Sequence record: ON540300.1 | Source: Escherichia phage ECOH1 | Length of the DNA stretch: 64,000 bases | Direction: 5' to 3' (one strand) | Shown: positions 5,409 through 43,860 of the stretch, one piece after another | Position numbering within the stretch: position 1 is the first letter of the stretch | Layout of the letters: each line of letters opens with the position of its first letter | Translations under genes and position numbers: made by a program | Notes under the pieces: model-generated | Databases searched by the model: none | What the model saw: the letters and a program-made list of their open reading frames with translations, nothing else | What the model was told of the DNA's origin: nothing

Positions 5409-5799
5409 AAAAACCTCTCTCTGCTTGTTCGATTTTTGCTCTTAAATTTTCGCAATGCTGTAGATGGTAGTTAGCTTCTTGTTCATGTGTTGCTAACTGC
5501 CTTTCCAGAACAGTTTTATAGTAACCTGCAAGTTGCTCTTTTGTCAATGGGTGCTCTGAAATAATATCAAGTCCACTTTCGCCAAGAGGGTTGAATTGTC
5601 CATGCTCATTGACATGGTAAGTTTCAAACTTGAACAGACCGTTGTTAGCAGATTCAATAGGTGAGAGTTCAGCCAACTCAACAGTGAACATTGTGTGTAC
5701 CCTATCACCAACTGTAACAATGTTACTACCAATGATTCTCACCATTGAGCCATTGCGAGTGTACTTAAAAGTTCCAAAGTCACTAGCCCAAAGTTTCAT
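5401..5799 (-). CDS. hypothetical protein (132 aa)
   Basis: ORF track. Confidence 0.5.
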   Translation of the reverse strand: MKLWASDFGTFKYTRNGSMVRIIGSNIVTVGDRVHTMFTVELAELSPIESANNGLFKFETYHVNEHGQFNPLGESGLDIISEHPLTKEQLAGYYKTVLERQLATHEQEANYHLQHCENLRAKIEQAERGFYE

Positions 5800-9024: not shown

Positions 9025-10440
9025 ATGAGCGAATTATTTAAACATGCGCACCTTCATGCAGGTCGAACTGAAAATGGTGCTGTAAACCATACTTCATCAA
9101 TGTCTGCTCTTGTGGACTTTTACAAAGCTGCTGGTTCCAGCCGTAGCAATGTAGAAATCTTACCAGACCTGTTCTACAAAGCTTTGCGTGAGGATGTTGA
9201 TGTTGCAGTTCGTATTTTACTGCATATGCGAGATGTACGAGAAGGTATGGGTGAGCGTAAAGCTTTCCGAACTGTTTTACTTCAAGCGATTGAAGATAAA
9301 GTTTTAGAGCCTACACAGGTTCTTCGCATTATGGATAAGATTGCAGAACTTGGTCGTTTTGATGACTTCAAAATCTTCGTAGGTACTCGTTTTGAGACAG
9401 ATGCCTTCAAACATTTAGAAGCAGCATTACTAGACCCTGCAACAGCAGGTTTAGCGGCTAAGTGGTTACCACGAGTAAAACCACGCCACAAACAGTTTGT
9501 AAAACGTTTCTGTAAGTTTGCAAACTTAAGTGAGAAGGAGTATCGCACACTGTTATCTGCACTGTCTGATACGGTTGAGCAAAAAATCTCTGCTAATGAG
9601 TTTGGTAAGATTGACTACAGCAAGATTCCTTCACTCGCTGCTGCACGTTACCAAAAGCTCTTTAACCGTAAAGATGGGGAACGTTACAAAGCTTACATCG
9701 AGTCCCTCTCAAAAGGTGAGGTTAAGATTAACGCTGGTGCTGTTTACCCATACGATGTGATTAAATCTATCAAGTATGGTAATGCAGATGTTGCTAATGA
9801 GCAGTGGAAAGCACTACCAAACTGGATGGCAGAAGGTGAGAACATCTTGTGTATGACTGATGTTTCAAGCTCAATGTCTTGGGTGAATCTTGGTTCAATC
9901 ACTGCCCTTGATATTGGTGTATCACTTGCTTTGTATGTAGCAGAACGCAACACTGGTTGCTTTAAGAATGAGTTAATGGTTTACTCAACAAACCCTCACT
10001 TCATCGAACTGAGTGGTGATTTACGAAACCGTCATCGTCAGGTAATGCGTCATGTTGAATATGGTTCAACTAACTTACAAGCAGCTTTTGACCGTATTCT
10101 TGAGGTAGGTAAGCGAAACAACTTGACTCAGAAAGATATGCCAAGTAAGCTTATTATCTTCTCTGATATGGAGTTCACTCAGGTTGATGGAGCTAACGGT
10201 CGTACAAACTTTGAAGCAATTCAGAGTAAGTACAAAAAAGCTGGATACGAAATGCCACAACTAGTATTCTGGTACTTAGCAAACCGTAATGGTACTTGCG
10301 AAGTATCTGTTAAGGATAATGGTGTAGCGATGGTATCAGGGTTCTCTCCAGCCACTTTAAAAGCTCTGCTTGGTGGTGAGAAGTTTGACCCAATCAGCGT
10401 AATGCTCAAAGCAGTAATGATTGACCGTTACATCTGGTAA
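9025..10440 (+). CDS. vWA-domain protein with MIDAS motif; architecture resembles Ro60/TROVE (Rsr-like) RNA-binding proteins
   Basis: DxSxS motif DVSSSMS near residue 280, later hydrophobic IIFSDMEF strand, helical N-terminal 270 aa; homology unverified. Confidence 0.7.
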   Translation: MSELFKHAHLHAGRTENGAVNHTSSMSALVDFYKAAGSSRSNVEILPDLFYKALREDVDVAVRILLHMRDVREGMGERKAFRTVLLQAIEDKVLEPTQVLRIMDKIAELGRFDDFKIFVGTRFETDAFKHLEAALLDPATAGLAAKWLPRVKPRHKQFVKRFCKFANLSEKEYRTLLSALSDTVEQKISANEFGKIDYSKIPSLAAARYQKLFNRKDGERYKAYIESLSKGEVKINAGAVYPYDVIKSIKYGNADVANEQWKALPNWMAEGENILCMTDVSSSMSWVNLGSITALDIGVSLALYVAERNTGCFKNELMVYSTNPHFIELSGDLRNRHRQVMRHVEYGSTNLQAAFDRILEVGKRNNLTQKDMPSKLIIFSDMEFTQVDGANGRTNFEAIQSKYKKAGYEMPQLVFWYLANRNGTCEVSVKDNGVAMVSGFSPATLKALLGGEKFDPISVMLKAVMIDRYIW

Positions 10441-10458: not shown

Positions 10459-10488
10459 TTGACAATGTGTTTGATACCCTTTAATATG
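10459..10488 (+). promoter_or_regulatory. sigma70-like promoter inside palindrome AAAGGGTAT / ATACCCTTT
   Basis: TTGACA 10459-10464, TAATAT about 18 nt downstream; flanking 9-bp inverted repeat. Confidence 0.45.
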
Positions 10489-10549: not shown

Positions 10550-10578
10550 TTGACAACCACTAAAAAATAATGTTAAAG
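10550..10578 (+). promoter_or_regulatory. candidate promoter for tRNA array
   Basis: TTGACA at 10550-10555; weak -10; 30 bp upstream of first tRNA. Confidence 0.35.
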
Positions 10579-10605
10579 TGGTTACATAGAGTTTGAAAAG
10601 TTTAT

Positions 10606-10682
10606 CTCTGTTTAGCTCAGCTTGGTAGAGCGTTCCGTTTGGGGCGGTAAGGCCGGAGGTTCAAGTCCTCCAACAGAGACCA
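10606..10682 (+). tRNA. tRNA-Pro (anticodon TGG)
   Basis: Cloverleaf by eye: acceptor 7/7, D-stem gctc/gagc, anticodon loop ttTGGgg, T-loop TTCAAGT, CCA encoded. Confidence 0.8.
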
Positions 10683-10689
10683 AATTAAT

Positions 10690-10767
10690 GTTCCAGTAGA
10701 CAAAATGGTAAAGTCACCACTCTTTCAAAGTGGATATTTGAGGGTTCAAATCCCTTCTGGAACGCCA
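10690..10767 (+). tRNA. tRNA-Glu (anticodon TTC)
   Basis: Acceptor 7/7, perfect anticodon stem, loop ctTTCaa, T-loop TTCAAAT, CCA encoded. Confidence 0.8.
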
Positions 10768-10858
10768 GTTTTGACAGAAGACCAATTGCAGCAAACTTAA
10801 TCTTATTCATCTGACACGAAATCGGACAAAGAAGAGATTTGGTCTGGTCATTAAGAAT
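10768..10858 (+). ncRNA. structured spacer element A (5' ACAGAAGACCA ... 3' TGGTCTGGTCATT)
   Basis: Terminal stem AGACCA/TGGTCT; same family as elements at 10936 and 11441. Confidence 0.4.
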
Positions 10859-10935
10859 TGCGGGTATAGAGAAAGGGCGTCTCACATGTCTCATTAGCAT
10901 GGTATCGGCAGGTTCGACTCCTGCACCCGCCTCCA
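10859..10935 (+). tRNA. tRNA with CAT anticodon (Met or Ile-lysidine type)
   Basis: D-stem gaga/tctc, anticodon stem catgt/gcatg, loop ctCATta, T-loop TTCGACT; acceptor has one mismatch. Confidence 0.6.
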
Positions 10936-11018
10936 AATTTACAGAAGACCGTTTACAGCAATATTTATTAAATTTTTAGCGGAAAAATTGAAAGATACGG
11001 TCTGGTAATACTAAACAT
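10936..11018 (+). ncRNA. structured spacer element B (5' ACAGAAGACCGTTTACAGCAA ... 3' ACGGTCTGGTAAT)
   Basis: Terminal stem AGACCGT/ACGGTCT enclosing internal hairpin AATTTTT-agcgg-AAAAATT. Confidence 0.4.
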
Positions 11019-11095
11019 GGTTAGGAAGCACATAAGGTATGTGCGGTCGCCTGTTAAGCGAATGGCACAGGGTTCGAATCCCTGACTAACCGCCA
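11019..11095 (+). tRNA. tRNA-Asn (anticodon GTT)
   Basis: Acceptor ggttagg/actaacc, anticodon loop ctGTTaa, T-loop TTCGAAT, CCA encoded. Confidence 0.75.
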
Positions 11096-11104
11096 AATTT
11101 AAAT

Positions 11105-11192
11105 GTGTCGTTATCCCGTAGATGGTAGCGGTGGGGACTGTAAATCCCTTGTCATTGAGACTCGGTAGGTTCGACTCCTACACGGCACACCA
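11105..11192 (+). tRNA. tRNA-Tyr (anticodon GTA), long variable arm
   Basis: Acceptor gtgtcgt/acggcac, anticodon loop ctGTAaa, 15-nt variable arm, T-loop TTCGACT, CCA. Confidence 0.7.
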
Positions 11193-11198
11193 AATAAA

Positions 11199-11276
11199 GG
11201 TTATGTAGTTTAATCTGGTTAAAATACTCCCCTGTCACGGGAGATGATGAGGGTTCAAATCCCTTCGTAACCGCCA
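11199..11276 (+). tRNA. tRNA-Asp (anticodon GTC)
   Basis: Acceptor ggttatg/cgtaacc, anticodon stem ctccc/gggag, loop ctGTCac, T-loop TTCAAAT, CCA. Confidence 0.75.
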
Positions 11277-11440
11277 AATTATAATAAGTATTTCAAAATG
11301 ATGTTTGAGAGGGCTATTTAGCCCCTCCCTTAAAGAGTTCTTACGAGTATTCTTTAAAGGAGCAGAAGGCCAAATTCAGCAAGTTACTTAAAATTTCAAG
11401 CCAATTTAATTTTGAAAAATTTAAAACTTGGTCTGGCTCA

Positions 11441-11597
11441 ACAATTTTACAGAAGACCGTTTACAGCAAAACTTAAACAATCTATTTCTCCGGTAAAGAA
11501 AAGGCGAAGGTTCGATTCCTTCACTCGGCAGATGTCGAGTTGGTGTAATGGTAGCACTTAAGATGATAAACAACGGTCTGGTAATTATCTTTGTAGG
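11441..11597 (+). ncRNA. structured element C: permuted tRNA-like module (T-arm, closed acceptor-like helix, D-arm; no anticodon arm) inside a spacer-repeat stem
   Basis: T-arm GAAGG-TTCGATT-CCTTC 11517-11533; acceptor 3' strand ACTCGGC 11534-11540, loop agat, 5' strand GTCGAGT 11545-11551; D-arm GTGT-aatggta-GCAC 11554-11568; enclosing stem AGACCGTT 11466-11473 / AACGGTCT 11583-11590. Confidence 0.55.
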
Positions 11598-11730
11598 TGA
11601 GCTATTAAGCTTACCTGTGAGTATGCGACCACAAAGGGTGAAAGGGTAAATTCTAGATTTAAACCCAACAAGGCACATCGCTACAGACCTTAAGCAAGTC
11701 TGGGTAGCTTATCTACAAAGATAATTTAAT

Positions 11731-11806
11731 GGAAGTGTAGCAGAATGGTGATGCGGCAGACTTTTAATCTGACAGGCGATGGGTTCGAATCCCTCCACTT
11801 CTACCA
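11731..11806 (+). tRNA. tRNA-Lys (anticodon TTT)
   Basis: Acceptor ggaagtg/cacttct, anticodon loop ctTTTaa, T-loop TTCGAAT, CCA; T-stem has 2 mismatches. Confidence 0.65.
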
Positions 11807-11810
11807 ATAT

Positions 11811-11887
11811 GGTTCAGTCGCAGATAAGGTAATGCAGGGGTCTCATAAGCCCTATGAATGTGGGTTCGATTCCCATCTGAACCTCCA
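11811..11887 (+). tRNA. tRNA-Met (anticodon CAT), second copy
   Basis: Acceptor ggttcag/ctgaacc 7/7, anticodon loop ctCATaa, T-loop TTCGATT, CCA. Confidence 0.7.
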
Positions 11888-11888
11888 A

Positions 11889-11964
11889 GCTGGTATAGTT
11901 AAGAAGGTTATAACACTCCCCTGATAAGGGAACATCGGTGGTTCGATTCCACCTACCAGTACCA
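11889..11964 (+). tRNA. tRNA-Ile (anticodon GAT)
   Basis: D-stem gtta/taac, anticodon loop ctGATaa, T-stem ggtgg/ccacc, CCA. Confidence 0.75.
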
Positions 11965-11979
11965 ATTTCAATAAAGTTG

Positions 11980-12008
11980 TTGACATTGAGATGTGACTAC
12001 TTTATAGT
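11980..12008 (+). promoter_or_regulatory. sigma70-like promoter inside tRNA array
   Basis: TTGACA 11980-11985, 17-nt spacer, TATAGT 12003-12008. Confidence 0.6.
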
Positions 12009-12331
12009 AACTGAAAATGATTCAGCATATGTATAATTCAAACACCAATACATGAGCATTAGACGTAATGCAATGTGGGGAAATTTGTTGTACATATTCT
12101 GAATAGTTTTCGTTGCGTAGCGTCTATTTTGCAAATTTAAAATAAATGCAAACGACAATGTTTTTCTGGCAGTAGCTTGATAGGCTAAACACCAGTGAGG
12201 TCTTCCAATCCCTCATCAAAGAATTTGGCGTACTAGCCCACGGTATGATTAATAAGGTGGGCAACATTTTAAAGGGTATCCCTTATTGGGCTTGGCTTAA
12301 ATGCAATGAGTACCCTTTAAAATGTTAATTA

Positions 12332-12413
12332 CGGGGCGTATCTCAGCGGTCTTCTAAACCGCCGTTAACCGAGTAAGTGGAGTATGCGGGTTCGAGTCCT
12401 GCCGCCTCGACCA
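12332..12413 (+). tRNA. non-canonical tRNA-like gene, anticodon arm consistent with TCT (Arg)
   Basis: Perfect arm gcggt-ctTCTaa-accgc, T-arm and acceptor cggggcg/cgcctcg with CCA; D-arm region only about 7 nt and about 23-nt variable region. Confidence 0.45.
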
Positions 12414-12556
12414 ATTTAGTTAGCAGATTGCTTAGACGACCTTATCGGGTCTCCGTGTAAGGAGGTGGTCTGTATCTCATGTTTTCCAGAACATGTAAAT
12501 AATCTGAGAAGGGGCTTTACAGTGTTGTGAAAATACGGTAAGCTTCGAATTACAAT

Positions 12557-12639
12557 ATGGGACGATGTTAAGACTCTAAGGCATGAGCAACGGCTTCCAA
12601 CACCGTTTCAAAGGGGTTCAACTCCTCCGTCCCATGCCA
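12557..12639 (+). tRNA. tRNA-Trp-like (anticodon CCA) with extended D region
   Basis: Acceptor atgggac/gtcccat 7/7, anticodon loop ttCCAac, T-loop TTCAACT, CCA; D region about 7 nt too long. Confidence 0.5.
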
Positions 12640-12652
12640 AAGTCTTATTAGG

Positions 12653-12740
12653 GGTAGGTAGCGGCTAATGGTAGCCAAACTGTCTTGAAAACAGTTGCCA
12701 CTGTAGAGATACGGTGAGGGTTCGACTCCTTTACTTACCG
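12653..12740 (+). tRNA. tRNA-Ser (anticodon TGA), long variable arm
   Basis: 3-bp D-stem, anticodon loop ctTGAaa, about 20-nt variable arm, T-loop TTCGACT; CCA not encoded. Confidence 0.7.
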
Positions 12741-12997
12741 CCTAATAAGATTTACACCGTCCATGCTTGCTCGCATTTTCGGTTTATCCATCGTGTATTG
12801 TCGTACACACTGATAAAGCACCTAGTAGGTGTCACGGAGAAGAGATAATATCAAGCTCTCCAAAGGTTCTAGTCACCGGATTAAACAAGACTATGCAAAG
12901 ACCTATTTAGGTCTTTTTAGAGGGCTTCTAAGGTTATTACAGCTTGTTGTGGAACCTTGTTGCTTAGGTTCTTAGAAGTTCTCTAAAAAGATTTAAT

Positions 12998-13075
12998 GGG
13001 AGATTGACGGTAATTGGTAAACCTACCATCCTTAGAAGTTGGTGTTTGAGGGTTCGAATCCCTTGTCTCCTACCA
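12998..13075 (+). tRNA. tRNA with anticodon TAG (Leu box), short variable loop
   Basis: Acceptor gggagat/gtctcct, Leu-like D-loop taattggtaaa, anticodon loop ctTAGaa, 5-nt variable loop, CCA. Confidence 0.55.
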
Positions 13076-13082
13076 AATTAAT

Positions 13083-13158
13083 GCAGGTGTAGCAAAATGG
13101 TTATGCGGCTGACTCTTAATCAGTAAGACGATGGGTTCAATTCCCTCCACCTGTACCA
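13083..13158 (+). tRNA. tRNA-Lys (anticodon CTT)
   Basis: Paralog of Lys-TTT gene; anticodon loop ctCTTaa, T-loop TTCAATT, CCA. Confidence 0.7.
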
Positions 13159-13164
13159 AACATT

Positions 13165-13240
13165 GGGGATGTAGTTTACATGGTTAAAACATAAGTTTTG
13201 CAAACTTAAGTACAGGGTTCAATTCCCTGCTTCTCCACCA
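13165..13240 (+). tRNA. tRNA-Ala (anticodon TGC)
   Basis: D-stem gttt/aaac, perfect anticodon stem taagt/actta, loop ttTGCaa, CCA. Confidence 0.75.
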
Positions 13241-13246
13241 ATTAGT

Positions 13247-13321
13247 GCATCCATAGTTTAAACGGGAAAATTACAGTCTTCCAAACTGAGGTTGAGGGTT
13301 CGATTCCCTCTGGATGCTCCA
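13247..13321 (+). tRNA. tRNA-Gly (anticodon TCC)
   Basis: Acceptor gcatcca/tggatgc 7/7, anticodon loop ctTCCaa, T-loop TTCGATT, CCA. Confidence 0.75.
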
Positions 13322-13328
13322 AATTAAT

Positions 13329-13404
13329 GCTCCTATCGTATAATTGGCTATTACGGTTGCCTTGTAAGCAACTTATCAGGGTTCGAATCCTTGTGGGAGC
13401 ACCA
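13329..13404 (+). tRNA. tRNA-Thr (anticodon TGT)
   Basis: Anticodon stem gttgc/gcaac perfect, loop ctTGTaa, T-loop TTCGAAT, CCA. Confidence 0.8.
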
Positions 13405-13499
13405 ATTCAGAGGTCAAGTGAAAGACCGCTGGTGTCAACTGAAGACCGTAACAAATTCCACGGAGTTGAGTTAGCGGCACAACTTCAGACCTCTTCCAT
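13405..13499 (+). ncRNA. structured spacer element D, degenerate relative of element C
   Basis: Contains CTGAAGACCGTAACAA (5' motif variant) and GGAGTTGAGTTAGCGGCAC resembling the acceptor-5'/D-arm part of element C; outer stem AGAGGTC/GACCTCT. Confidence 0.35.
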
Positions 13500-13574
13500 A
13501 CTCGCTTAGTTTATATGGTAAAACATCACCCTTACAAGATGAAGAAAAAGGTTCAAGTCCTTTAGTGAGTACCA
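13500..13574 (+). tRNA. tRNA-Val (anticodon TAC)
   Basis: D-stem gttt/aaac, anticodon loop ctTACaa, T-stem aaagg/ccttt, CCA. Confidence 0.7.
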
Positions 13575-13575
13575 T

Positions 13576-13653
13576 GTTCCAGTATCCCAATTGGCAGAGG
13601 ATGCAAGCTCAAACCTTGTACTAGTGACGGTTCGAATCCGTCTTGGAACACCA
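13576..13653 (+). tRNA. tRNA with anticodon CAA (Leu box), short variable loop
   Basis: D-arm tcc-caattggcaga-gga (Leu-like), anticodon stem gcaag/cttgt, loop ctCAAac, 6-nt variable loop, CCA. Confidence 0.6.
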
Positions 13654-13658
13654 ATTTT

Positions 13659-13734
13659 GCAGGATTAGTTCAAATGGATAGAGCAACAGTCTACGAAGCT
13701 GTTAATAGGGGTTCGAATCCCTTATCCTGCGCCA
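13659..13734 (+). tRNA. tRNA-Arg (anticodon ACG)
   Basis: Acceptor gcaggat/atcctgc 7/7, anticodon loop ctACGaa, T-loop TTCGAAT, CCA. Confidence 0.75.
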
Positions 13735-13753
13735 AGTTAAAGAGGCTATTTAG

Positions 13754-14311
13754 ATGAGATATTTGAAGTATGCTTCATGGATTTTCTTAGCTTTGTTAGA
13801 ACCATTTGCAGCAATCTTAGCAGTTATCTTAGCACCTTTTGTAGTTCCATTCTACAGTGAGAAGAAAGGACATCTACCTTTCGGGTTCAGATGGATGGAA
13901 ACTTATGACAACCCAATTGATGGCGATGAAGGTCATGTCAAAAGATGGGCTAAGATTAGAAAGATTGGTAAGCTTGGTATCTATATGCAGAGAGTCGGTT
14001 GGCTCTGGAGAAACAAAGCTTATAACTTCTCTTACCATGTGTTAGGAAGAGATGTAAAAGATGTTACTAAGTGGAAAGGTAATATCAATGTAAGTTCTAA
14101 CCCTGAAGATAATCAGACAGGTTATCTCCTAATGTGGAACAGTAATGCTTGGGGGTTATTCGCTTTTGTACCATCAATTAAAATCTTTGGTAAACAATTC
14201 TACTGGAGAATTTATGTTGGATGGAAACTTAAAAGTGTTGTCCCAGAAGAAAGAGCATTCTCAAGGGAAAGAGTTATGTTGGCATTCTTTATCCATCCAC
14301 TAAGAAAATAA
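13754..14311 (+). CDS. membrane protein encoded inside the tRNA array (185 aa)
   Basis: ORF track; N-terminal hydrophobic segment WIFLALLEPFAAILAVILAPFVVPF; preceded by AGAGGCTATTTAG motif. Confidence 0.6.
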   Translation: MRYLKYASWIFLALLEPFAAILAVILAPFVVPFYSEKKGHLPFGFRWMETYDNPIDGDEGHVKRWAKIRKIGKLGIYMQRVGWLWRNKAYNFSYHVLGRDVKDVTKWKGNINVSSNPEDNQTGYLLMWNSNAWGLFAFVPSIKIFGKQFYWRIYVGWKLKSVVPEERAFSRERVMLAFFIHPLRK

Positions 14312-14319
14312 AGATTTAA

Positions 14320-14395
14320 AGGGGATTAGTTTACAAGGTTAAAACCTCGGTCTTTGAAATCGAAGAAGTTGGTTCAATTCCAACATCCCCCGCCA
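14320..14395 (+). tRNA. tRNA-Gln (anticodon TTG)
   Basis: D-stem gttt/aaac, anticodon loop ctTTGaa, T-stem gttgg/ccaac, CCA. Confidence 0.75.
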
Positions 14396-14397
14396 AT

Positions 14398-14476
14398 GCT
14401 CCATTACTCCAATTGGCAGAGAGGCCAGACTTAAAATCTGTGTTATGTATCGGTTCGAATCCGATATGGAGTACCA
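14398..14476 (+). tRNA. tRNA with anticodon TAA (Leu box), short variable loop
   Basis: D-arm ctc-caattggcaga-gag (Leu-like), anticodon loop ctTAAaa, 7-nt variable loop, T-stem atcgg/ccgat, CCA. Confidence 0.6.
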
Positions 14477-14481
14477 AATTT

Positions 14482-14557
14482 AGCGGTATAGCATAACTGG
14501 CAATGCAGCAGTCTCTGAAGCTGTCTTATTAAGGTTCAAATCCTTATGCCGCTGCCA
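14482..14557 (+). tRNA. tRNA-Gln (anticodon CTG)
   Basis: D-stem gcat/atgc, anticodon loop ctCTGaa, T-stem taagg/cctta, CCA. Confidence 0.75.
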
Positions 14558-14588
14558 CTTCTAAGGATTCTTACGAGAGTCCTTAAAT

Positions 14589-14664
14589 GTGGCCTTATCA
14601 TAAATGGTAATGACCCATGCTGTGAACATGGTCTATACGGGTTCAAATCCCGTAGGTCACCCCA
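14589..14664 (+). tRNA. tRNA-His (anticodon GTG)
   Basis: Perfect anticodon stem ccatg/catgg, loop ctGTGaa, discriminator C, CCA; no encoded G at -1. Confidence 0.75.
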
Positions 14665-14669
14665 ATTTA

Positions 14670-14744
14670 TAGTCCAAGTAGCTTATATGGTTAAAGCGCG
14701 TGTCTGAAAAACATGAGAAGAGGGTTCAAATCCCACTGGGCTAC
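14670..14744 (+). tRNA. tRNA-Phe (anticodon GAA)
   Basis: Acceptor tagtcca/tgggcta, anticodon stem cgtgt/acatg, loop ctGAAaa, T-loop TTCAAAT; CCA not fully encoded. Confidence 0.65.
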
Positions 14745-15013
14745 CAATTTCAAAGGTGCTTAATGAAAGAGATGACAGAACAAGGTAAGGAGATTTTTAA
14801 TCTCTTAAAAACCGGTAGAGGGTTTTCTAATCCCTTATTACTGGTGCAGCAGTTCTCGGTGGAACCGTAGCTGCCTCTACATCACTTGTAAGCTCTATTA
14901 GCTCTGTAACAGACCCTACAATAAAGGATAAACTTGTTGCTGCTGGACTTACAACAGTTCTGCTTAACAGCTTTACAACGAGTCTGACAAGCACTACATC
15001 AACCACTAAGACA

Positions 15014-15496
15014 TTGGCAGATTACGGTCAAAAGTCCATTGATGAGTTTTCATCACGTATGCAGGTAGCAAAAGGATATTCCAATGTTATGGGTGCAGCA
15101 GGAGAGCAAGTCGGTTGCACACCATTTAGTGGTATTATGGGTGTTGCTACAGAGTACGGTCAAAAAGCTATTGACACAATTAACAGTACACTAGATGGTG
15201 TTAATGATGTATTAAGTGACTTACAAGATGCTATTGATAAAGGTCTTGATACTGTTTCTGATTTAGCTAATCAAGCTGTTAGTAAGATTAATGAAGGTAT
15301 CTCGAAGATTACAGCTTATGCAGATGAAGTTGTGCAGATGATTGAAGAAGAAGCTGCCCTTATTGCAGAGTACCTTAAAACGAATATCAATGGGTTCTTA
15401 GCAGGTATCTTACCAGACTGGTTTGATGATGCTTGTAAAACTGGTGTAATTGACACTATTGCAACACCAGAAATGAAGAACGCATTACAGAAATAA
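15014..15496 (+). CDS. hypothetical protein (at least 160 aa); N-terminus uncertain
   Basis: ORF track start is TTG; the same frame stays open and protein-like back to 14831 with no ATG or GTG. Confidence 0.5.
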   Translation: MADYGQKSIDEFSSRMQVAKGYSNVMGAAGEQVGCTPFSGIMGVATEYGQKAIDTINSTLDGVNDVLSDLQDAIDKGLDTVSDLANQAVSKINEGISKITAYADEVVQMIEEEAALIAEYLKTNINGFLAGILPDWFDDACKTGVIDTIATPEMKNALQK

Positions 15497-15497
15497 T

Positions 15498-15590
15498 GGA
15501 AGATTAACCCTAAAAGGTAAGGGAGCAGTTTGCTAAACTGCCAGTAGCTGAGAAATCGGTGTACCAGTTCAAGTCTGGTATCTTCCTCCA
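15498..15590 (+). tRNA. tRNA-Ser (anticodon GCT), long variable arm
   Basis: Acceptor ggaagat/atcttcc 7/7, perfect anticodon stem gcagt/actgc, loop ttGCTaa, about 21-nt variable arm, T-loop TTCAAGT, CCA. Confidence 0.75.
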
Positions 15591-15594
15591 ATTT

Positions 15595-15670
15595 GAATCC
15601 GTGACAGAAATGGCTATGTACCTGTCTGCAAAACAGGTTTATAAGGGTTCGAGTCCCTTCGGATTCTCCA
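15595..15670 (+). tRNA. tRNA-Cys (anticodon GCA)
   Basis: Acceptor gaatccg/cggattc 7/7, perfect anticodon stem cctgt/acagg, loop ctGCAaa, T-loop TTCGAGT, CCA. Confidence 0.8.
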
Positions 15671-43329: not shown

Positions 43330-43860
43330 GTATTACATTGAGTATAAAAATAAGCTATAACACCTGATTTGTCAACAGATTTTATAGCTTATTTGGCAGA
43401 TTTTTTTTATAAGGCTACTGCCATCCTTCCATACCAAACCATACCAGACATAGCCATACCCGACCGTACCTCGCCTCACAACACTTAAAAATCCTCTTAG
43501 AAGACTCTTAAGTGATGTAATCGAATTTTAATGTAGCTCCGATTAACTACCCATACCTCACCTCATCCAACCATACCATGCCTTACCAGACCGCACCTTA
43601 CCTTATTAAAAGACCCTATTTAAAGACCTTTTAAAAAGGTGAGTCTCATTTTAAATGTAGCTGAGACTAACTACCCATACTGTACCGCACCTGACCCGAC
43701 CTGACCAGACCTAACATTACCGTGCCACACCGTACCGAACAGAACATTGCCATACCTCGCATCACTTAAAAACCCTTTTAAAAGACTCTTAAGTGATGCT
43801 GGTGAGTACCCGTCGGTTTATGCTGCTCAGTATACTCACCAAATTTTCTATGTCAACAAC
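43330..43860. repeat. 530-bp strand-biased (C/A-rich on plus) intergenic region with direct repeats and two covarying hairpins with conserved loop
   Basis: Direct repeat AAAAA(T/C)CC...AAGACTCTTAAGTGATG at 43486-43516 and 43768-43798; hairpins 43518-43545 (TAATCG/CGATTA) and 43641-43668 (AGTCTCA/TGAGACT) share loop TTTTAA(A)TGTAGC and 3' flank AACTACCCATAC. Confidence 0.6.

Follow-up and report, generated by a model that had tools for sequence, protein, structure and literature searches.

Ro60 proteins and Y RNAs constitute a conserved RNA-surveillance system, known as an autoantigen in lupus and Sjögren's syndrome, whose bacterial and viral biology is poorly understood. The protein binds Y RNAs through a bulged helix made by the RNA ends, and the Y RNAs tether or gate polynucleotide phosphorylase (PNPase) in Ro60-Y RNA-PNPase (RYPER) complexes. 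In bacteria, at least two Y RNAs are encoded near the Ro60 gene, namely YrlA, which mimics a tRNA with a T arm, an acceptor and a D arm, and the shorter YrlB, which in Salmonella has no tRNA-like domain; both carry a conserved 5' motif (GNCGAAN0-1G), the proposed contact with Rsr, and YrlA of M. smegmatis has a 7-bp acceptor stem, is cleaved by RNase P and receives CCA in vivo (PMC4201824). The Ro60 of Thermus phage phiLo binds two adjacent Yrl RNAs together with the host PNPase (PMC12135203; PDB 9KOP, 9L5Y). In the Felixounavirus Bas63, gp130 is Ro60-like by structure, is encoded directly upstream of a tRNA stretch and counters the Ppl defence system, and the authors guessed that some annotated tRNA genes might be Y RNAs, without identifying spacer elements (10.1101/2024.10.10.617714). 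The stretch analysed here, a 64,000-nt window from Escherichia phage ECOH1 (ON540300.1; one strand, 5' to 3'), contains a tRNA array in which four structured elements, A, B, E and C, follow a Ro60-like gene. These elements are likely Y RNA-like noncoding RNA genes and partners of a divergent phage Ro60, one of them YrlA-like and three YrlB-like.

A Ro60-like protein encoded upstream of the tRNA array

The window belongs to a Felixounavirus (Felix O1-like phage), and the region under study is 95-98% identical to Escherichia phage KEP1, Salmonella phage Felix O1 and others. It carries 25 tRNA genes on the + strand at 10606-15670 (ARAGORN), to which Rfam adds one at 12332-12410. The gene directly upstream of this array, a context absent from the first-pass annotation of the window, encodes a protein with the Pfam domains DUF2828 and DUF7788 and belongs to PHROG 850 ('RNA-binding protein'). 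An AlphaFold model of the protein based on 37 homologues (predicted local distance difference test, pLDDT, 85; predicted template modelling score, pTM, 0.86) consists of a ring of helical repeats and a C-terminal von Willebrand factor A (vWA) domain. Foldseek comparison with the PDB returned Ro60/TROVE structures as all ten top matches (Xenopus and human Ro60, D. radiodurans Rsr and the Ro60 of Thermus phage phiLo; E 9e-9 to 5e-7), with template modelling (TM) scores of 0.53-0.64 for nine of the ten and 0.37 for Rsr (2nvo) over 516-561 aligned columns, followed by isolated vWA domains only. [quoted passage not shown] The protein thus has the helical-repeat ring and the MIDAS-bearing vWA domain of the Ro60/TROVE fold, although no significant sequence match to TROVE or Ro60 was obtained, phmmer and a profile search against the PDB yielding only Ro60 with E about 1, at the MIDAS motif. 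Homologues occur in 709 of 50,697 phage records; mycobacteriophages carry versions with approximately 33% identity across 98% of the length, for which the annotation is 'Ro-like RNA binding protein'. Taken together, the fold matches, the MIDAS motif and the annotation of homologues indicate that the protein is a divergent Ro60. Bas63 gp130 is probably its orthologue, on the basis of synteny and genus. Elements A to C lie 330-1150 nt downstream of the gene and hence within the 2 kb of a Ro60 orthologue expected of YrlA and YrlB, though the neighbouring protein is not a Pfam TROVE member.

Four elements with a common terminal helix

Spacers between the tRNA genes of the array are mostly 1-9 nt long, so that the long spacers flagged by the first-pass annotation stand out. 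That annotation described a family of four stem-bounded copies, termed A, B, C and D, of which the first three were placed correctly; A, given as 10768-10858, is exactly the spacer between tRNA-Glu and tRNA-Met, and B, given as 10936-11018, exactly that between tRNA-Met and tRNA-Asn, while C was given as 11441-11597. The copies have in common the ends 5' ACAGAAGACC...CAGCAA and 3' GGTCTGG. The ends proposed at first are real, with GGTCTGG occurring 15 times in 64 kb against 4.2 expected, but their 5' consensus was one base short, since five nucleotides and not four separate ACC and CAGCAA. Four + strand copies of GGTCTGG cluster at 10841, 10999, 11430 and 11575, and CAGAAGRCC is found with zero mismatches at 10775, 10942, 11363 and 11450, each time 65-135 nt upstream of a clustered GGTCTGG. 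These four pairings define four copies, one of which, E, had been overlooked, whereas D had been wrongly included.

The common fold comprises a 4-bp outer stem, an internal loop with 5'-AGA opposite a 3' G, a 7-bp inner stem AG(A/G)CCNN/NNGGUCU and, directly after its 5' strand, single-stranded UU(A/U/G)CAGCAA (Table 1). In nine Ounavirinae genomes (Felixounavirus, Suspvirus CHB7 and Mooglevirus Sf14), all 36 copies are syntenic and have a fully paired 4-bp outer stem, which together with the computed folds bears out the terminal stem claimed for A, B and C. The pair sets of this stem differ between paralogues and orthologues in these genomes (UGAC/GUCA, UUAC/GUAA, UUGC/GCAA and GAGC/GCUC, plus G-U variants), so that the outer stem of A, B, E and C covaries; orthologues of B in CHB7 and in loci L006 and L009, for instance, carry the compensatory outer stem UUGC/GCAA. 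The interiors of the elements diverge freely among the same relatives while the terminal helix covaries. A covariance model of the short elements (R1, described below) matched A, B, E and the 5' part of C only across the 64-kb window. Rfam scans of the region, at gathering score and at E<=10, returned only tRNAs and chance-level matches, with no family on the elements. The earlier proposal of a paralogous structured-RNA family with one tRNA-mimicking member holds for A, B and C plus E. Open reading frames (ORFs) overlapping the elements are merely short and out of frame, and a small-ORF reading was rejected.

The same RNA module beside DUF2828 genes of other phages

Relatives of the Ro60-like protein were sampled from 80 IMG/VR loci, mostly with 39-47% identity, and from several GenBank phages. 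A descriptor of the module ([AG]G-N5, 0-2 nt, T[ATG]CAGCA, 20-175 nt, pairing 7-mer then G) gave 164 matches on the gene strand, whereas the opposite strand had 27 and block-shuffled sequences 10-19; matches occurred in 60 of 89 DUF2828 loci. To avoid circularity, the 8-mer T[AT]CAGCAA alone was also used as selector, giving 159 sites on the gene strand and 62 on the opposite one. A helix scoring >=7 between the preceding 14 nt and the following 190 nt was present at 60% of the gene-strand sites versus 15% after shuffling, and at 18% of the opposite-strand sites versus 17%; this test took the place of an earlier pairing test with the wrong register and free G-U pairs (55/159 against 30-39 in controls). 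The covariance model R1, built from 39 short elements, was run on 81 non-Ounavirinae loci; 43 of them contained matches at E<=0.1, 57 altogether, and every one of these was on the gene strand. The search of related phages that had been suggested as a check thus recovers the same motif beside DUF2828 genes. R1 matches lie at a median of 139 nt from the gene, 28 upstream and 29 downstream, and 44 of the 57 fall within 300 nt (8% expected).

The family consensus is (U)UUAA-[A/G]G-N5-(N)-U[A/U]CAGCAA ... A-rich ... N5'-C[U/C]-G-(U/A)UAA. Hardly any variation is seen in its two leading pairs (A-U, G-C), in CAGCA or in the G left unpaired behind the 3' strand, while the other five pairs covary. The conserved core beside DUF2828 genes is the module AG-N5 … N5'-CU-G plus UACAGCAA. 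A reverse scan of IMG/VR with TTAAGNNNNNTTACAGCAA was weakly supportive: among the matches listed, which were mostly due to chance, 13 had a proper stem and 3 of these had a DUF2828 gene, while 3 more good-looking instances were situated on stretches too short to judge. The motif family is widespread beside DUF2828 genes, absent from Rfam and apparently undescribed, and no paper identifying the spacer elements or their motif was found in the literature searched.

A tRNA was present within 4 kb in only 27 of 82 loci, and in 25 of the 43 loci with R1 matches there was none, indicating that the elements follow the gene and not the tRNAs. This disposes of the processing-element or spacer reading that the first-pass annotation had left standing, and it is highly improbable that the elements are plain tRNA-precursor spacers with RNase recognition structures and no function of their own. 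A and B do fill inter-tRNA spacers exactly, as such a reading would predict, but the module also forms tandem arrays without tRNAs between the copies, its conserved motif lies away from the tRNA borders, and the other spacers of the array are, as described above, mostly very short.

A permuted tRNA-like domain on element C and other long forms

As the first-pass annotation had stated, C alone among the four copies carries a complete circularly permuted tRNA-like domain, according to RNAfold, the Rfam tRNA model and RNAalifold. It is a whole tRNA body, circularly permuted, with its ends between the D arm and the anticodon-like arm (Table 1). The Rfam tRNA model aligned 11473-11523 as an anticodon arm plus T arm at 22 bits (threshold 29), and ARAGORN calls no tRNA at C, which does not show the standard 5'-acceptor...3'-CCA topology with a conserved anticodon loop. 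The anticodon-like loop reads CCGGUAA in the window, CUGGUAA in CHB7 and CUUAUAA in Sf14, and Felix O1 has one of 6 nt; this variation among close relatives makes a decoding role of C unlikely.

Twelve long elements from 8 loci, selected by the terminal stem alone, were aligned with MAFFT, and RNAalifold folded the alignment into four helices, namely the terminal stem, the T arm, a closed 7-bp acceptor and the D arm. Of the 24 pairs, 21 show compensatory changes. The covariance model derived from this alignment (R2) gave 94 matches at E<=0.1, all on the gene strand. Among the new full-length matches are sites in mycobacteriophages Samty and CicholasNage that immediately follow the gene labelled 'Ro-like RNA binding protein', where three tandem elements carry the motif GUGGAC-N4-(N)-ACAGCAAUUA ... 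GUCCAGU(U/A)AA. In approximately half of the phage long forms, N-CCA is kept in the acceptor-closing loop, a hint that they derive from tandem tRNA genes and may undergo RNase P/CCA processing like that seen in M. smegmatis.

In other long forms the handle bears conserved inserts of a quite different kind. Uncultured phages have two such apical modules, neither of them tRNA-like, one with GAACCUUUCUGGAGGGGAAAGCAAAAACUCGCCAA and the other an insert of ~165 nt starting CAUAAUACUAUGAAC (loci L012, L015, L018 and L026, e.g. L026 3725-3836; L043, L054, L059, L070 and L080, e.g. L054 3470-3650). Furthermore, four 'over-long tRNAs' (111-121 nt) represent the non-permuted version, having a normal acceptor stem, D arm, T arm and N-CCA end, with an insert after the D arm that consists of a 7-8-bp hairpin ending ...CU, a 3-4-nt loop (G-first in 3 of 4), AG... 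and then U(U)[A/U]CAGCA. The over-long tRNA of FBKp34 retains the Asp GUC anticodon arm. GenBank labels those of FBKp34 and S13 as tRNA-Asp, tRNA-Ser and tRNA-OTHER, and that of LAh_6 is called by the Rfam tRNA model only. The presence of the handle on over-long tRNAs and on varied inserts indicates that it is a portable module. The view that the copies represent different stages of gain or loss of the tRNA mimic is hence better replaced by that of a constant protein-binding stem with exchangeable apical modules, as in YrlA versus YrlB.

Two further explanations are affected by these data. Inverted terminal sequences and several copies in one region are reminiscent of miniature inverted-repeat transposable (MITE) or repetitive extragenic palindromic (REP) elements, but it is scarcely credible that such mobile or repeat elements are spreading within the array, given an absolute strand bias (57:0 for R1 and 94:0 for R2), copies beside one gene only in 64 kb, positions that are syntenic across genera, and stems that covary rather than keep their sequence. 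It also appears unlikely that the elements are cis-acting, operator-like sites within the tRNA precursor or the mRNA of the Ro60-like gene which, bound by the protein or another factor, control processing, stability or translation without forming a stable ribonucleoprotein (RNP). The gene-proximal R1 matches on either side of the gene occupy positions resembling untranslated regions, and tandem arrays in Aeromonas phage LAh_6 reach right up to the start codon, as expected of such sites; however, the window elements lie beyond two promoter-like sites, with tRNAs between them and the gene, many copies bear elaborate conserved apical domains (tRNA-like and others) that a simple operator would not need, and the known Ro60 partners encoded in this manner are stable RNAs (PMC4201824, PMC12135203).

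Proposed role of the elements

As Y RNA-like partners of the phage Ro60, the elements would be transcribed with the tRNA array from the promoter-like sites in front of it, and may be cut out by the tRNA-maturing enzymes, with RNase P acting at the 5' end of the next tRNA and 3'-trimming acting on the previous one; such release by tRNA processing is proposed because A and B adjoin the ends of mature tRNAs. The Ro60-like ring would dock on the bulged helix together with UACAGCAA, and the variable apical part may tether or gate other factors in the way that Y RNAs act on PNPase. The 7-bp length of its acceptor-like stem makes C a possible RNase P substrate as well, like YrlA of M. smegmatis. The resulting RNP would probably function in the surveillance of RNA, likely tRNA, or in counter-defence during infection, in line with the action of the probably orthologous Bas63 gp130 against Ppl.

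Several results weigh against this assignment. A Pfam search with the Ro60-like protein at E<=10 yields DUF2828 and DUF7788 only, and not TROVE. The Rfam YrlA family (RF02553; gathering score 69 bits) gave no match on A, B, E and C at E<=10 in 5.4-kb and 271-nt scans, and no match at gathering score in 16 DUF2828 loci, two mycobacteriophages included. The motif GNCGAAN0-1G is absent, the 5' ends in the window being (U/G)(A/G)CAGAAG(A/G)CC, of which other phages keep only the AG at the start of the inner stem. The module was not matched in 29 of 89 DUF2828 loci by the descriptor and in 38 of 81 by R1, and the count of inner-stem pairing and covariation is circular, as the sequences had been chosen for pairing. 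Moreover, plating on Ppl hosts is rescued by gp130 on its own, whether supplied on a plasmid or as an insert in T7 (10.1101/2024.10.10.617714), so that the RNAs are not needed for that phenotype; they may serve another function of the RNP, or only tune this one. On the mechanism of Ppl, the literature search yielded nothing beyond that preprint.

The activity of gp130 without RNAs, together with the presence in the array of structured RNAs that lack the motif (F and D, described below), would also fit a quite unlikely alternative, in which the elements are independent phage small RNAs, either by-products of tRNA processing or regulators, and are linked to DUF2828 genes by shared transcription or a shared pathway and not by binding. 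The stable non-tRNA species of the T4 tRNA cluster would serve as a model for such RNAs. However, the linkage is tight, strand-specific and deep, extending to a protein identity of about 30-40% and to hosts from Enterobacteria to Mycobacterium, which would be hard to maintain without a direct functional tie, and the architecture matches that of YrlA.

More broadly, the Y RNA-like elements are possibly, rather than probably, local members of a large and apparently undescribed superfamily of phage RNAs, whose handle docks Ro60 proteins of the DUF2828 branch and is grafted on exchangeable cargo. The hallmark of such a superfamily would be a 7-bp helix starting with A-U and G-C, an unpaired G after the 3' strand and then UACAGCAA, and its cargo could range from none, through unrelated structured domains and permuted tRNA bodies, to near-intact, CCA-ended tRNA bodies; in the last of these, the handle would follow the D arm and precede the anticodon or T arm (FBKp34, S13 and LAh_6). 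If this is true, a Ro60 ring with tRNA look-alikes would constitute a tRNA-centred device for counter-defence or repair, for example as a decoy, a shield or a means of triage for damage by anticodon nucleases. RNA partners of the DUF2828 branch would turn the guess of the Bas63 study into specific, testable genes, for a protein that is mostly labelled 'hypothetical' or 'RNA-binding protein' in hundreds of phages, therapeutic Felix O1-type phages included. With the motif, such RNAs could be annotated in other phages, and the curious 'over-long tRNAs' of phage annotations might be accounted for. The E. coli/Salmonella phage system is tractable and would also allow the purpose of the tRNA-like module of Y RNAs, and the help that a Ro60 RNP gives against host defence, to be addressed.

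Other structured features of the window

Element D, regarded in the first-pass annotation as a degenerate copy, has only GAAGACCGT in common with the family, lacks both UACAGCAA and the ...CU-G 3' strand, and was matched by neither R1 nor R2 (E<=10 or E<=0.1); it was rejected as a member on these grounds. Its fold has a z-score of -3.0 and the core GUCAACUGAAGACCGUAACAAAUUCCAYGG, and its conservation is 93-100% across 259 records, in which it occupies the same position between tRNA-Thr and tRNA-Val, and 81% in the tRNA cluster of Vequintavirinae phage TH18 (L091 1501-1584), with no covariation or compensatory changes in the conserved copies. Directly after C, element F keeps its terminal stem with compensatory changes in Felix O1, CHB7 and Sf14 while its interior diverges, and it has no ACAGCAA motif and no Rfam match.

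A link to the minus strand of the 43330-43860 region, where a GGTCTGG-type motif had been reported to recur, does not survive closer inspection. The minus-strand copies at 43586 and 43705 lie inside an intergenic GGT-rich degenerate repeat and R1 finds no match there, so that the motif of this region was rejected as a relative of the array elements. The region consists of GGT-rich short repeats (GGTATGG, GGTCTGG, GGTCGGG, GGTGCGG ...) between three hairpin-like CACTTAAGAGTCTT...AAGTG units on the minus strand and is flanked by promoter-like TTGACA sites.

Within the array, the tRNA found by Rfam alone (31.7 bits; + strand) combines a UCU anticodon loop with a long extra region, and CHB7 and Sf14 annotate tRNA-Arg(TCT) in the matching part of their arrays. 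Upstream of it, 367 nt on the + strand (11965-12331) are free of tRNAs and have the best promoter match of the array at their start (11980-12008, 11/12); 12185-12331 is strongly structured (z -3.9), with a long hairpin at ~12263-12326, and gives only chance-level matches of tmRNA type in Rfam. At 12556-12640 (+), a tRNA-shaped sequence called by neither ARAGORN nor Rfam has the acceptor AUGGGAC/GUCCCAU followed by GCCA, and a 9-nt anticodon-like loop CUUCCAACA. A second CUUCCAA hairpin loop occurs nearby at ~12196-12212, a similar GGCUUCCAAC is present in Klebsiella phage FBKp34 (L004 ~5665-5680), and CUUCCAA is the anticodon loop of phage tRNA-Gly(UCC). The spacer between tRNA-Asp and element E (11277-11358, +) contains two more hairpins, GAGGGCU...AGCCCCUC and CUUUAAAGAG...UUCUUUAAAG (z -2.8). 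The array of Felix O1 holds three HNH endonuclease genes that are absent from the window (L001 3338-3823, 4311-4703 and 5621-6034), indicating that the array is a hotspot of gain and loss of homing endonucleases in which the four elements A, B, E and C stay put.

Table 1. Positions of the Ro60-like gene, the RNA elements and their parts in the window, and of over-long tRNAs in other phages
Feature	Position	Strand	Description
Ro60-like protein gene	9025-10440	+	471 aa; ends 166 nt before first tRNA
Two sigma-70-like promoter matches	10459-10487, 10550-10579	+	10/12 each, consensus matches only; between Ro60-like gene and first tRNA
Element A, short	10772-10850	+	Outer stem UGAC/GUCA (10772-75/10847-50); AGA 10776-78 opposite G10846; inner stem AGACCAA/UUGGUCU (10779-85/10839-45); UUGCAGCAA 10786-94; R1 46 bits, E 3e-7
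Element B, short	10939-11008	+	Outer stem UUAC/GUAA; AGA/G loop; inner stem AGACCGU/ACGGUCU; UUACAGCAA; R1 59.7 bits, E 5e-10
Element E, short	11360-11439	+	Outer stem GAGC/GCUC; AGA/G loop; inner stem AGGCCAA/UUGGUCU; AUUCAGCAA; R1 42 bits, E 2e-6
Element C, long	11447-11584	+	Outer stem UUAC/GUAA (11447-50/11581-84); AGA 11451-53; G11580; inner stem 11454-60/11573-79; UUACAGCAA 11461-69; R2 125 bits
C, closing helix	11472-76/11558-62	+	CUUAA/UUAAG
C, V or anticodon-like arm	11485-11501	+	5 bp and 7-nt loop, then 4-nt linker
C, T arm	11506-22	+	GAAGG-UUCGAUU-CCUUC; canonical
C, acceptor-like stem	11523-29/11534-40	+	7 bp; loop AGAU; then UG
C, D arm	11543-57	+	GUGU-AAUGGUA-GCAC
Element F	11588-11721	+	134 nt directly after C; 19-bp terminal stem; minimum free energy -45 vs -28.7 kcal/mol shuffled, z -4.1
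Element D	13405-13499	+	Not a family member; separately conserved hairpin between tRNA-Thr and tRNA-Val
Over-long tRNA, Klebsiella phage FBKp34	L004 5003-5113		
Over-long tRNAs, Cronobacter phage S13	L088 4895-5015, 5025-5137		
Over-long tRNA, Aeromonas phage LAh_6	L089 494-610		

Comparison with known systems

[quoted passage not shown] The order of halves in C is the same, and about half of the phage long forms keep N-CCA; by contrast, the anticodon-like loop of the elements is unconserved (GGU, UAU or a 6-nt loop), their ends form a docking helix of the protein-binding type, and there is no sign of decoding. Metazoan Y RNAs (RF00019) resemble the elements in having an end-formed bulged helix as the Ro60 dock and a variable apical loop for other factors, but they differ in the geometry of the bulge, have no tRNA-like module and show no sequence similarity; scans with all of Rfam at E<=10 gave no Y_RNA match. 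The phiLo system likewise pairs a phage Ro60-fold protein with two adjacent stem-bulge-stem RNAs, and some of the best fold matches of the window protein are structures from it. Its RNAs, on the other hand, were chosen for a CGAA motif and are encoded upstream of the gene, with neither a tRNA array nor UACAGCAA reported (PMC12135203).

The closest likeness is to YrlA and YrlB. In both cases several RNAs per locus lie beside the gene of a Ro60-fold protein, one of them with a tRNA-like domain in the order (V), T arm, closed acceptor, D arm on a bulged stem and the others short hairpins. The Rfam YrlA consensus, as read off a chance-level alignment, has a 6-bp outer stem, an asymmetric internal loop, a 7-bp stem, 3 nt, a 4-bp stem, and then the T arm, acceptor and D arm. 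The parts of C are arranged as in YrlA (RF02553), helix for helix, and C is the only one of the four elements in which a T arm, a closed acceptor-like stem and a D arm follow one another on an end-formed stem; its acceptor stem of 7 bp is like that of the RNase P-cleaved M. smegmatis YrlA. The phage elements differ in carrying the AG...CU-G helix plus UACAGCAA instead of GNCGAAN0-1G, in having a DUF2828/DUF7788 partner and not a Pfam TROVE protein, and in being present as four copies inside a tRNA array. On present evidence, C would therefore be YrlA-like in its working, yet outside the Rfam YrlA family, and A, B and E would be its short partners of the YrlB type.

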